Of a DNA stretch of 64,000 nt, positions 8,401 to 43,504 are shown one piece after another; the first letter of the stretch is position 1; each line of letters starts with the position of its first letter. The translations under genes were made by a program, and so were the position numbers. The notes beneath the pieces were generated by a model. The model had not been told where the DNA came from. It did no database searches and saw only the letters and a program-made list of their open reading frames with translations. Location: the sequence record MZ375356.1. One strand, 5' to 3'. The DNA is from Escherichia phage T4.

Positions 8401-9059
8401 TGAGTTTACTTAATAATAAAGCGGGAGTTATTTCCCGCTTAGCCGATTTTCTTGGTTTTAGACCTAAAACTGGCGACATTGATGTAATGAATCGTCAATC
8501 AGTCGGGTCAGTGACAATATCTCAATTAGCGAAAGGATTTTATGAACCAAACATAGAATCAGCTATTAATGACGTTCATAATTTTTCTATAAAAGACGTT
8601 GGCACAATTATTACTAATAAAACTGGTGTTTCTCCTGAGGGTGTTTCTCAAACTGATTATTGGGCATTTTCTGGAACTGTAACAGACGATTCTCTTCCTC
8701 CGGGTTCTCCTATTACGGTATTAGTATTTGGTCTTCCAGTTTCAGCAACAACTGGAATGACGGCAATTGAGTTTGTTGCAAAAGTTCGCGTTGCACTACA
8801 AGAAGCTATTGCGTCATTTACTGCTATCAATTCATATAAAGACCATCCAACTGATGGTAGTAAATTAGAAGTTACTTATTTAGATAATCAAAAACATGTA
8901 TTAAGCACATATTCTACATATGGAATAACTATTTCCCAAGAAATTATATCTGAGTCTAAGCCTGGCTATGGTACATGGAATTTATTGGGCGCACAAACTG
9001 TAACTTTAGATAATCAGCAGACTCCTACAGTATTTTATCATTTTGAGAGAACAGCATGA
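8400..9059 (+). CDS. 11: baseplate wedge protein gp11 (short tail fibre attachment)
   Basis: ATG at 8400 overlapping the gp10 stop gives 219 aa beginning MSLLNNKAG, as in T4 gp11; the ORF track start at 8382 is a non-ATG upstream codon. Confidence 0.88.
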
Positions 9060-10639
9060 GTAATAATACATATCAACACGTTTCTAATGAATCTCGTTAT
9101 GTAAAATTTGATCCTACCGATACGAATTTTCCACCGGAGATTACTGATGTTCAGGCTGCTATAGCAGCCATTTCTCCTGCTGGAGTAAATGGAGTTCCTG
9201 ATGCATCGTCAACAACAAAGGGAATTCTATTTCTTGCCACTGAACAGGAAGTTATAGATGGAACTAATAATACCAAAGCAGTTACACCAGCAACGTTGGC
9301 AACAAGATTATCTTATCCAAATGCAACTGAAACTGTTTACGGATTAACAAGATATTCAACCAATGATGAAGCCATTGCCGGAGTTAATAATGAATCTTCT
9401 ATAACTCCAGCTAAATTTACTGTCGCCCTTAATAATGCGTTTGAAACGCGAGTTTCAACTGAATCCTCAAATGGTGTTATTAAAATTTCATCTCTACCGC
9501 AAGCATTAGCTGGTGCAGATGATACTACTGCAATGACTCCATTAAAAACACAGCAGTTAGCTATTAAATTAATTGCGCAAATTGCTCCTTCTGAAACCAC
9601 AGCTACCGAATCGGACCAAGGTGTTGTTCAATTAGCAACAGTAGCGCAGGTTCGTCAGGGAACTTTAAGAGAAGGCTATGCAATTTCTCCTTATACGTTT
9701 ATGAATTCATCTGCTACTGAAGAATATAAAGGCGTAATTAAATTAGGAACACAATCAGAAGTTAACTCGAATAATGCTTCTGTTGCGGTTACTGGCGCAA
9801 CTCTTAATGGTCGTGGTTCTACGACGTCAATGAGAGGCGTAGTTAAATTAACTACAACCGCCGGTTCACAGAGTGGAGGCGATGCTTCATCAGCCTTAGC
9901 TTGGAATGCTGACGTTATCCACCAAAGAGGTGGTCAAATTATCTATGGAACACTCCGCATTGAAGACACATTTACAATAGCTAATGGTGGAGCAAATATT
10001 ACGGGTACCGTCAGAATGACTGGCGGTTATATTCAAGGTAACCGCATCGTAACACAAAATGAAATTGATAGAACTATTCCTGTCGGAGCTATTATGATGT
10101 GGGCCGCTGATAGTCTTCCTAGTGATGCTTGGCGCTTCTGCCATGGTGGAACTGTTTCAGCGTCAGATTGTCCATTATATGCTTCTAGAATTGGAACAAG
10201 ATATGGCGGAAACCCATCAAATCCTGGATTGCCTGACATGCGTGGTCTTTTTGTTCGTGGTTCTGGTCGTGGTTCTCACTTAACAAATCCAAATGTTAAT
10301 GGTAATGACCAATTTGGTAAACCTAGATTAGGTGTAGGTTGTACCGGTGGATATGTTGGTGAAGTACAGAAACAACAGATGTCTTATCATAAACATGCTG
10401 GCGGATTTGGTGAGTATAATGATTCTGGGGCATTCGGTAATACCCGTAGATCAAATTTTGTTGGTACACGTAAAGGACTTGACTGGGATAACCGTTCATA
10501 CTTCACCAATGACGGATATGAAATTGACCCAGAATCACAACGAAATTCCAAATATACATTAAATCGTCCTGAATTAATTGGAAATGAAACACGTCCATGG
10601 AACATTTCTTTAAACTACATAATTAAGGTAAAAGAATGA
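9056..10639 (+). CDS. 12: short tail fibre protein gp12
   Basis: 527-aa ORF matching T4 gp12; ATGA overlaps at both ends. Confidence 0.9.
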
Positions 10640-40687: not shown

Positions 40688-40690
40688 CAA

Positions 40691-40716
40691 TGGGGACCGA
40701 AAGGTCCCCATATTTT
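40691..40716. terminator. hairpin terminator between convergent genes 54 and the alt-upstream ORF
   Basis: tggggacc-GAAA-ggtcccca followed by TATTTTTATTT. Confidence 0.7.
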
Positions 40717-41006
40717 TATTTACGGAATGAAATGAAAGCAGCAACTGAAGCAACTAAACTGTCTTCAATATAAACTTCAATTTTTACAGGAGCTTCTGAC
40801 TCAAATTTACCTGTTACTACACCCTGAAAAATACTTTCAGTCTGTTCTGGCTTTGAAAAATTTTCAGAAGGAAAAATTCCGAACTTTTTATCTGTTCCAA
40901 AAATTTTGATAAATTCATCGTAAACCGCTTCGTTAAAAGCATTATCAGCAGGAATAACGCCTTCAACTACAAGTTCTTGACCTAAAAAGCGTAAAGAAGA
41001 TTTCAT
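40716..41006 (-). CDS. hypothetical 96-aa protein (positional equivalent of T4 alt.-3)
   Basis: ORF with a Shine-Dalgarno GAGGAA upstream; directly downstream of an early promoter. Confidence 0.65.
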   Translation of the reverse strand: MKSSLRFLGQELVVEGVIPADNAFNEAVYDEFIKIFGTDKKFGIFPSENFSKPEQTESIFQGVVTGKFESEAPVKIEVYIEDSLVASVAAFISFRK

Positions 41007-41037
41007 TTTGTGTTCCTCATGTTATGTTAGTAAGACT

Positions 41038-41067
41038 ACTATAACACAACACGAGGGACTTGTAAAC
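41038..41067 (-). promoter_or_regulatory. T4 early promoter (GTTTAC-N18-TATAGT)
   Basis: Minus strand reads GTTTACAAGTCCCTCGTGTTGTGTTATAGT; part of a 53-bp block duplicated at 54227-54279. Confidence 0.7.
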
Positions 41068-41424
41068 TACATTTTGAACTTTTTAGTACGCGTAATAGGC
41101 ATGCGTCGATTTTATACTGTTTCATTGTTTGAAGAGCAGTATCAAAAACAGCATTAATGACACCAATTGGATTTCCACCCAAGTTTTTAAGCTTAACTAA
41201 TGATAGTTTCTCATTAACACCTATCATTACGATATGCATCATTTTATCGCCTGGTTTAACGTTTTATTTGTATCACCGCCAGAGGTGTATGTACAAAATC
41301 TAAATCCAGGAAGTACACTTTCTTCACCGGCTTGAATAGCAAAAATTTGTGGTATTTTATGCTTAGGATTTAAGTTAACAACCGGCGCCGAAGCGCCGTC
41401 AAATAATTCTGTAATAAGTTCCAT
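41039..41424 (-). pseudogene. tandem paralogue of the Alt N-terminus split across two frames (T4 alt.-2/alt.-1 equivalents)
   Basis: ORF 41239-41424 (MELITELFDGASAPV...CTYTSGGDTN) and ORF 41039-41242 (MMHIV...QYKIDACLLRVLKS) are collinear with Alt residues 1-125 but in different frames. Confidence 0.7.
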
Positions 41425-41427
41425 GAT

Positions 41428-43476
41428 TTATCCTTGAACGAACTTGTAAGGCATGTTTGCAATATCTATGCAAGACGCAATAATTCCAAGAGATGATTCT
41501 ACTTTCTGTTTAACATTTGATGAAACAAATGATGCAAAGTCAACTCTATCTTCTATATCACCTGTCATTGTAACCAATTCACCAGTTTCCATTAAATGGT
41601 CTCCGTCATAGATTACCGATTCGGTGAGTTCTTCTGTGGTCATAACTTCAGCTTGAATAAGCTTGTTGTTAGTTTTAACTGTTCCATCATTGTAAGATGC
41701 ATCGGTTATTTTATTAACTTTGACCATTAATCCACGTGGCAAAATGACTTCCATTTCATTTGAAGGCGCTAAACTTCCACCGGGTAAAACAACATTGACC
41801 TTATCAGCCCCAGTAATAACCCATCCAATTCCAACTAAATTATCGCTAGAATTTACAAGTCCTTCATCAGTTTTATCAATAGAAACGCTTAAACGCTTTT
41901 CGTCTGGTAAAACACCTATAGATGAATCAGTCATCCAAGTACCAAAAATATTTGGATATAATGATGTTGACACAAAGTTTCTAAAATAAAAAACTCGATT
42001 TTTTACCATTGCTTCGTATATTGAAGGTAACATTCGTTGTGAACGATACAAAGTAATACCTTTTGGTAATCGTTCACCATTTTTAAAGGCTGAATCTAAA
42101 TTATCAATAGCTTTTTCTATGTCAGATGCTGTCAAAATACTTGTACGCTCATCTGGATTATATAATCCCAAAAGAGCATTATTTATGTCTACATATCCTG
42201 AACCTACGTATTCACGAATTCCGCGTTTTTGCGCTGGTGTGTATTTAGATGAATCTTTATTTTCGACTATAGGATGTAATGACCATCCAGCGGTAAGAGC
42301 ATATCCACGTAATTCTCTTCGAATAATCTTTGTTTTTATTGCATTCCAAGAATTTTGTACTAACTCATTTGCAGCATCTTGGTTTAAATGCGAATGTTTG
42401 TTAATATTTCTTTCAAACCAAGCACCCTTATATTTTTCTAAAGTATCATCGACGATAGAAGCAATAGTTTCTAAGGTTTTTATTGAAGTAATAGATTCTT
42501 TTCGTAATCTTTCTAAAGCTTTATTTTTTATTTCTGCGTTAATAATGGATTCTTTATCTTCAGGAATTATAGAAGCTTCTCTGAATGCCATCCCAGCTGT
42601 AACACTGCTAAGAGCATTCTCTAGTGCAAATCCTGAAGTAGAAATTACCGTTAATTCATTAGAATCAGAAATTAAAGGCGCGTCCGCTGGTTTATTTAAT
42701 TCGGCCGCTGAAGCCTCAAATTTTTGAAACATTGGTGTTTCAAATCTAGAAGATTCCAATGACTGACTTTGCGCAATTGCTCTACGGGAAATTTTAACTT
42801 TAACGATTACAGCTTGGTCAGAACGTTTATCATTTTCTTGCGCAATAGATGCTGCAATTGCCTCATTTTTAGTTACTTGAGCCCCAGTATCTTTATTGAT
42901 ATAAACATCACCGACCTTCGATTCAACTTTAGTAAAGAGCTCGGTACTAATTTCCGGAACTCCTGGAATGTCTTCTAGTGATACATTTTTGCGATGTATA
43001 AGAATATATGCATACTTTTTATCGTAATCCCAGAGTTCCTTAAGAAGGACGTATCTACCACCTGAACGACTACGGATAAGTCTATCAGCAATAACTTGAA
43101 TTTGTCGAGCTTGGCCAGCAGTTTTAGACTTAAGAATACGGAGCATACAGGCATCAATTTTATACTGGCGCATTGTTTGCATTGCAACAGTAAAAACTGA
43201 ATTGATATAATTAATTGGGCTTGGACCAAGACCTTTTAATTTAGCAATTGAACCTTTAGCAGTTAATGTAAAAGGAACAATATGCATCATTTTATCGCCC
43301 ATCTTTAAATCACGATTAGTATCACCTCCAGATGTATAGGTACATAAACGAAAGCCTGGTTGTTCAATTGCATCATCAACATGAACTGAAAAAATTTGCG
43401 GTATTTTCTTCTTTGGATATAAGTTTGTAATTGGAAGAGTAGTATCTTCGTCAAATAATTCTGTAATAAGTTCCAT
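41428..43476 (-). CDS. alt: Alt ADP-ribosyltransferase (capsid-packaged, modifies host RNA polymerase)
   Basis: 682 aa from MELITELFDEDTTLPITNLYPKK. Confidence 0.9.
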   Translation of the reverse strand: MELITELFDEDTTLPITNLYPKKKIPQIFSVHVDDAIEQPGFRLCTYTSGGDTNRDLKMGDKMMHIVPFTLTAKGSIAKLKGLGPSPINYINSVFTVAMQTMRQYKIDACMLRILKSKTAGQARQIQVIADRLIRSRSGGRYVLLKELWDYDKKYAYILIHRKNVSLEDIPGVPEISTELFTKVESKVGDVYINKDTGAQVTKNEAIAASIAQENDKRSDQAVIVKVKISRRAIAQSQSLESSRFETPMFQKFEASAAELNKPADAPLISDSNELTVISTSGFALENALSSVTAGMAFREASIIPEDKESIINAEIKNKALERLRKESITSIKTLETIASIVDDTLEKYKGAWFERNINKHSHLNQDAANELVQNSWNAIKTKIIRRELRGYALTAGWSLHPIVENKDSSKYTPAQKRGIREYVGSGYVDINNALLGLYNPDERTSILTASDIEKAIDNLDSAFKNGERLPKGITLYRSQRMLPSIYEAMVKNRVFYFRNFVSTSLYPNIFGTWMTDSSIGVLPDEKRLSVSIDKTDEGLVNSSDNLVGIGWVITGADKVNVVLPGGSLAPSNEMEVILPRGLMVKVNKITDASYNDGTVKTNNKLIQAEVMTTEELTESVIYDGDHLMETGELVTMTGDIEDRVDFASFVSSNVKQKVESSLGIIASCIDIANMPYKFVQG

Positions 43477-43504
43477 CATATCCTCTCTAGTGTTTATTCT
43501 ATTC

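Follow-up and report, generated by a model that had tools for sequence, protein, structure and literature searches.

The T4 reading frames alt.-1 and alt.-2 are very probably the pseudogene remnant of a second full-length alt-like gene

Internal head proteins of bacteriophage T4 are reported to enter the prohead core via short N-terminal targeting sequences (PMC5694885). The prohead protease gp21 cleaves Alt at two sites, following ITE-6 and LTE-619 (PMC5694885, PMC9026906), and the N-terminal propeptide documented for it comprises 6 residues only, with cleavage at ITE-6 (PMC5694885). Downstream of alt, T4 carries two short ORFs, alt.-1 and alt.-2, which have already been annotated and described. 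The note attached to them in NC_000866.4 explains the pair as a copy of the initial part of alt that contains a stop and a new start, and Nolan et al. 2006 list "T4 ORFs alt.-1 alt.-2" among the paralogous duplications of alt (PMC1524935). For Yersinia phage fPS-2 the annotation of g192c gives similarity to the Alt N-terminus and the term "putative pseudogene". In RB14 and T2, alt and arn are separated by a 2,058-bp gene encoding 685 aa, which is annotated in RB14 (YP_002854530) as alt.-2 or "Alt-like RNA polymerase ADP-ribosyltransferase" and in T2 (BBF63359) as a hypothetical protein; RB51 alt.-2 is another full-length second Alt-like ADP-ribosyltransferase of Tequatroviruses. The locus studied here is the same object as that of NC_000866.4 and of Nolan et al. 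2006, with identical DNA and an annotation as the duplicated first part of alt. In contrast to the NC_000866.4 note, we describe it as what is very probably a whole-gene paralogue, shortened by a 1,699-bp deletion and a 1-nt deletion. Literature searches by UniProt identifiers and keywords found no published account of a deletion origin, and our additions are the reconstructed origin and the evidence of drift.

The window analysed here comprised 64,000 nucleotides of Escherichia phage T4 (MZ375356.1). On the minus strand, alt (41428-43476; taken as 41428-43479 for the similarity searches) is followed by the two short ORFs and by arn (alt.-3; 40716-41006). A bidirectional terminator, formed by a hairpin at 40690-40711, separates arn from gene 54, which is on the plus strand. 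alt encodes an intact ADP-ribosyltransferase with the ART domain PF03496 at residues 375-615; its downstream neighbour arn is intact as well and shows abundant early expression. Both short ORFs are on the minus strand. alt.-1 (NP_049810; 41239-41424) encodes 61 aa starting with MELITELFDGASAP, and alt.-2 (NP_049809; 41039-41242) encodes 67 aa starting with MMHIVMIGV, the stop codon of the former and the start codon of the latter being joined, as read from the sequence, in an ATGA overlap. In T4, alt.-1 retains the MELITE N-terminus, an intact start codon and a Shine-Dalgarno sequence, and its inherited ribosome-binding site AAGGA is located within the final alt codons. The 741 bases around the ORFs were 100% identical to OZ209023.1 and 99.5% identical to NC_000866.4. 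Since the region of alt.-1 and alt.-2, hereafter the stump, is base-for-base the same in NC_000866.4 and was seen again in many independent T4 records, a sequencing artefact is excluded. Three plus-strand ORFs (41008-41157, 41157-41303 and 41234-41335) were set aside as short antisense frames without support.

Some further features of the neighbourhood were observed. T4 and RB14 share the stem of the terminator hairpin, but their 4-nt loops are reverse complements of each other (plus strand: GAAA in T4, TTTC in RB14), the kind of flip that template switching inside a palindrome is expected to produce. RefSeq T4 lacks two C of this stem relative to the window, probably due to an old sequencing compression. 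A search of the whole window against Rfam returned zero RNA families.

The first-pass annotation had described the two ORFs as collinear paralogues of the Alt N-terminus. Both were found at the coordinates given above, and formal alignment bore out their similarity to Alt, which was significant. In BLASTP searches, alt.-1 matched residues 2-63 of the 683-aa reading of Alt (36/62 identities, E 2e-22) and alt.-2 matched residues 64-118 (34/55 identities, E 2e-21), so that the two matches are strictly collinear and lie well outside what chance would produce. The Alt profile PHROG 802 likewise matched alt.-1 at profile positions 2-60 (E 5e-19) and alt.-2 at positions 64-120 (E 8e-20), and by homology both ORFs can be assigned to the Alt-like ADP-ribosyltransferases. 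The ART domain PF03496 (ADPrib_exo_Tox) was absent in a Pfam search of alt.-1, alt.-2 and the open 128-aa version of the stump in phage AV121. T4 Alt and the stump hence share the homologous N-terminal region of about 118 residues (58-62% identity) and the MELITE/ITE-6 processing motif, whereas the stump lacks the catalytic domain and the C-terminal propeptide of Alt and is related to it by ancient paralogy.

With regard to the Alt enzyme itself, identity between T4 Alt and RB14 Alt (8426-10519 of the RB14 locus) is 98-100% for residues 1-250 and 88-92% for the C-terminus, but just 26-62% for residues 250-600, which include the catalytic domain. The DNA flanking alt is about 96.5% identical between the two phages. 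The central module of the enzyme appears to have been swapped between alleles. No solved structure of Alt was found, and an AlphaFold2 model of residues 1-135 computed without an alignment had a mean pLDDT of 37 and was unusable. A Pfam search matched no family in the Alt N-terminal region. PF26846.1 is listed in the annotation of the stump ORF of Salmonella phage SG1 and may be a recently defined family of the Alt N-terminal domain.

A close counterpart of the stump is the 685-aa paralogue of RB14, T2 and RB51, which occupies the same site between alt and arn and has the same start signals. Along its whole length, this protein has an identity of about 41% with the Alt of T4 and with that of RB14, and in RB14 Alt.-2 Pfam recognized ADPrib_exo_Tox (PF03496) at residues 416-620. 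Taking the full-length identity and the ART domain together, the paralogue is an old duplicate of the entire alt gene. The 5' end of the RB14 paralogue aligned with the T4 stump at 409/424 nt (96.5%) with one 1-nt gap. Beyond the point at which this match ends, the T4 DNA continued to match RB14 at 381/395 nt (96.5%), covering the last 20 nt of the paralogue, its stop codon, the intergenic DNA and arn. The stump is therefore orthologous to the full-length paralogue, with 96.5% DNA identity over the retained 5' part of about 350 nt and over the 3' end, but T4 lacks codons ~117-682 including the ART domain and has a frameshift in addition. T4 alt is the older paralogue of the lost gene and not the direct source of the stump.

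The nature of the first lesion is apparent from the junction. In RB14 and T2 the 9-mer CTAAAAAGT is present in two copies: the first is found at codons ~114-116 (VLKS), and the second, exactly 1,699 bp further on, lies 11 nt ahead of the stop codon (MSKKFKM*). T4 has only one copy, at 41078-41086 on the minus strand. T4 thus carries a 1,699-bp deletion between direct repeats, which took out the ADP-ribosyltransferase domain. Losses of this kind, between short direct repeats, typically arise by replication slippage or illegitimate recombination, and one of these processes would account for the loss seen here. As 1,699 is not divisible by three, the last twelve codons of alt.-2 are out of frame. 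Codons 1-55 of this ORF correspond to residues 62-116 of the paralogue, and the tail SKCSLQVPRVVL results from reading the final codons of the paralogue, its stop codon and the putative arn promoter in another frame. The TAG of the full-length gene (41067-41069, minus strand) survives in T4 as a relic stop codon that is no longer in frame.

A strong early-promoter-like site for arn (41038-41067, minus strand) closely follows the deletion junction on its downstream side, beneath the tail of the alt.-2 ORF. It consists of GTTTAC, a 17-nt spacer and a TG-extended TATAGT and from its sequence would function as a promoter. When taken as 41038-41069, the site and the stop codon of the lost paralogue overlap. 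The arn promoter of phages that have the intact gene would therefore lie within the upstream coding sequence or at its end.

The second lesion is a 1-nt deletion. The intact alleles have an A5 run, AATAAAAAC (AAT AAA AAC = N K N), where T4 has an A4 run, AATAAAAC, at 41262-41265 of the minus strand (plus-strand TTTT). The frame break that had been proposed in the A-run aataaaacgtt was thus placed correctly and can now be stated as the loss of one A from A5. It splits the stump into its two ORFs. alt.-1 consists of codons 1-53 of the lost second Alt paralogue and, past the A-run frameshift, of 8 out-of-frame codons.

The T4 deletion junction was present in approximately 90 of 501 matching phage records, all of them from T4-like phages that infect Escherichia, Shigella, Yersinia, Salmonella and related bacteria. 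About 400 records matched the 5' part without the T4 junction, and the extra A (A5 run) was present in every match listed. A comparison across T4-like genomes for an intact duplicate, as the first-pass annotation had proposed, was positive: the 685-aa frame was open in all four full-length alleles examined among the non-junction genomes (RB14, T2, ZN18 and one uncultivated IMG/VR genome). Pattern scans of IMG/VR gave only two contigs with the junction and four with the start region, and the survey of lesions was accordingly limited to 19 deletion carriers and 4 intact alleles out of ~90 and ~400, respectively.

Among the 19 carriers, seven had only a stop at codon 6 (GAA to TAA; EC128, fPS-2, AV119, 215Ecol030PP, PTE-Eco15, SG1 and FL12), four had only the A-run frameshift (T4, EL, G8 and one uncultivated IMG/VR viral genome), six combined both (F1, SP21535, 235Ecol030PP, slur14, ACG-C40 and BYEP01) and two, AV121 and FL23, had neither and retained an open 128-aa frame. 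The codon-6 stop, E6*, which strikes the glutamate of the ITE-6 site, was thus found in 13/19 and the A5 to A4 frameshift in 10/19 carriers, with the A-run remaining in frame in 9/19 (A5, or CAAAAA in SG1). Additional lesions were a 9-nt deletion in F1 and a further 1-nt deletion in 235Ecol030PP. Yersinia phage fPS-2 illustrates the different routes of decay: its g192c has the same deletion junction and the same stump as T4, but keeps the A5 run and has the stop at codon 6, whereas T4 has the frameshift without the stop. Neither E6* nor the frameshift was present in the four full-length alleles examined. The simplest order of events would therefore be that the deletion came first and the point lesions later, with recombination or recurrence mixing E6* and the frameshift among carriers.

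The substitutions were in line with these lesions. Variants shared with full-length alleles comprised 24 synonymous and 1 non-synonymous changes, and those private to deletion carriers 9 synonymous and 8 non-synonymous changes in addition to 3 indel events (Fisher p = 0.0014; 19 carriers, 4 intact reference alleles). This pattern points to a relaxation of selective constraint after the deletion. As only 4 intact alleles served as reference, older synonymous polymorphism has probably swelled the private class, and correcting for this would only sharpen the contrast with the shared variants. The alt.-2 frame was open in 18/19 carriers, which is expected over so short a time, yet is compatible with constraint. 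AV121 (410-796 of its locus) and FL23 (106-492), both phages from Danish pig waste or faeces, have kept the post-deletion 128-aa frame open, and residues 1-116 of the AV121 stump protein are 100% identical to many full-length alleles. A protein homologue search with the 128-aa AV121 frame gave 3 proteins, two of which resembled assembly junk. AV121 and FL23 are natural intermediates that could be used for probing a free N-terminal fragment.

Taken together, an intact ortholog in relatives, disabling lesions and, with 4 intact alleles for comparison, relaxed constraint were all found. We therefore consider it very probable that alt.-1 and alt.-2 are the pseudogene remnant of a second full-length alt-like gene that has been kept in most Tequatroviruses. 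An ancient duplication of the whole alt gene would have given rise to the 685-aa paralogue. In the T4 lineage, slippage or illegitimate recombination between the CTAAAAAGT repeats would then have removed 1,699 bp, starting at codon ~117, ending 11 nt short of the stop codon and including the catalytic domain. What was left would have been an open frame of 128 codons, of the kind that AV121 and FL23 have kept. The subsequent loss of one A from the A5 run would have split this frame into alt.-1 and alt.-2. Because the deletion ended just upstream of the arn early promoter, arn expression would have been unaffected, and because the stump is located on the alt transcript, it would still be transcribed. 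The start signals of the stump are intact, its protein products are undetected, and its sequence is drifting.

An alternative is that the ORFs still act as small proteins, Alt.-1 (with the ITE-6 propeptide) and/or Alt.-2 being made and acting alone, for example by entering or occupying prohead core sites and thereby tuning Alt packaging, or by binding an Alt partner. In favor of this, the MELITE-L of alt.-1 fits the gp21 site (L/I-x-E) and is identical to Alt ITE-6, albeit as a sequence match only, and the cleavage of the Alt propeptide at this site and the targeting of head proteins by short N-terminal sequences are documented (PMC5694885). Moreover, the N-terminal region of approximately 115 residues is the best conserved part between the paralogues (about 60% identity vs 41% overall), and it is conserved in 1,199 phage records (T4-like phages, Straboviridae). 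Given the intact start signals and MELITE, and an ATGA overlap that permits coupled translation, some translation of the stump is likely, and a short-lived alt.-1 peptide may be made. Nothing indicates that such a peptide accumulates, gets packaged or matters.

Proteins of 6-7 kDa give few peptides and are easily missed by shotgun proteomics; for Alt.-1 and Alt.-2, examples of tryptic peptides are IPQIFAIQAGEESVLPGFR and LSLVK/NLGGNPIGVINAVFDTALQTMK. In the entries of Table S2 of PMC9697503, the alt, alt.-1 and alt.-2 RNAs are classed as middle, and arn is early as RNA and protein. This difference in timing would fit a spared arn promoter and a stump residing on the alt transcript. In the same source, the Alt.-1 and Alt.-2 proteins are given as "NA", that is, undetected in T4-infected cells in which the RNA is present; Alt.-1 has all-zero LFQ intensities and Alt.-2 has no entry among the Table S3 rows covered, while Alt and Arn were readily quantified with intensities up to 1e9 (PMC9697503). 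A virion proteome listing Alt.-1 or Alt.-2 was not found in the literature, nor did knockout or fitness data come to light. The suggestion in the first-pass annotation that a free N-terminal fragment could compete with Alt for packaging has no support in view of the 6-residue propeptide, the lack of either protein among those reported from infected cells and the presence of E6* in most carriers. The further indels and the relaxed substitutions also argue against small proteins that act alone, as does the fact that each ORF covers only about half of the conserved N-terminal region, and we regard such a function as quite improbable. Whatever the role of the N-terminal ~115 residues of Alt may be, the T4 stump is not evidence for it.

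It could also be argued that the truncated 128-aa fragment was mildly harmful, for instance by competing with Alt for core incorporation while being catalytically dead, so that E6* and the frameshift were favored and spread. The two disabling lesions are each frequent and exist in all four combinations, and the open frame was kept in only 2/19 carriers. However, the counts fit neutral decay, with 1 nonsense change among 17 private substitutions and 3 indel events, and the frequencies of the lesions may reflect shared descent, recombination and the sampling of related isolates. Selected silencing is thus judged very improbable. The broader statement that the stump is not inert, either because Alt.-1 enters or blocks prohead core sites or because the lesions were selected to silence a harmful 128-aa fragment, likewise appears quite unlikely. 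If it were true, the conserved N-terminal region of Alt would be the head-incorporation module.

A direct partial duplication, in which the first ~125 codons of alt were copied in tandem and a stop and a new start were gained later, is in line with the wording of the RefSeq note and with the stump being collinear with Alt residues 1-118 only. The DNA argues against it: the stump is 229/351 nt (65%) identical to T4's own alt, far from the 96.5% found with the 5' end of the RB14 paralogue, and right after the 9-bp repeat junction comes the end of the latter (its last 20 nt plus stop codon). In addition, the paralogue has diverged from Alt along its whole length, and the duplication therefore involved the whole gene and is much older than the truncation. 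The earlier proposal of a decayed partial duplication accordingly holds as far as a decayed, frame-broken copy of the Alt N-terminus is concerned, but not for the partial duplication, which we consider extremely improbable.

Finally, recoding, by a programmed -1 frameshift at the A-run or by termination and reinitiation at ATGA, to give an Alt N-terminal protein of about 125 aa is hardly credible, even though a stop/start overlap of this kind is a classic arrangement for translational coupling and the open 128-aa version exists in AV121 and FL23: the site ACA AAT AAA ACG contains no X XXY YYZ slippery heptamer, a TAA in the target frame restricts slipping to one position, at which tRNA re-pairing would be poor, the folding energy of the 77 nt downstream (-11.7 kcal/mol, z = -0.94) is no better than that of shuffles, transcriptional slippage requires a run longer than A4, and coupled reinitiation would yield two peptides rather than a fusion. 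As the A-run is plainly in frame (A5) in intact alleles, its shortening is a mutation and not a conserved shift signal. Programmed frameshifting was thus rejected on the slippery heptamer, the downstream structure and the conservation of the site.

In summary, alt.-1 and alt.-2 of T4 are best treated as one pseudogene of a full-length second Alt-like ADP-ribosyltransferase, at the strength given above for this origin. For T4 itself, an ordinary transcribed and decaying relic has little import beyond a tidier annotation. The locus provides a clean, small example of phage gene loss through a short-repeat deletion, followed by homopolymer slippage and nonsense mutation. T4 accordingly lacks a packaged-enzyme candidate that is present in T2, RB14 and hundreds of relatives, and this absence is relevant when results on host takeover by T4 are generalized to other phages.
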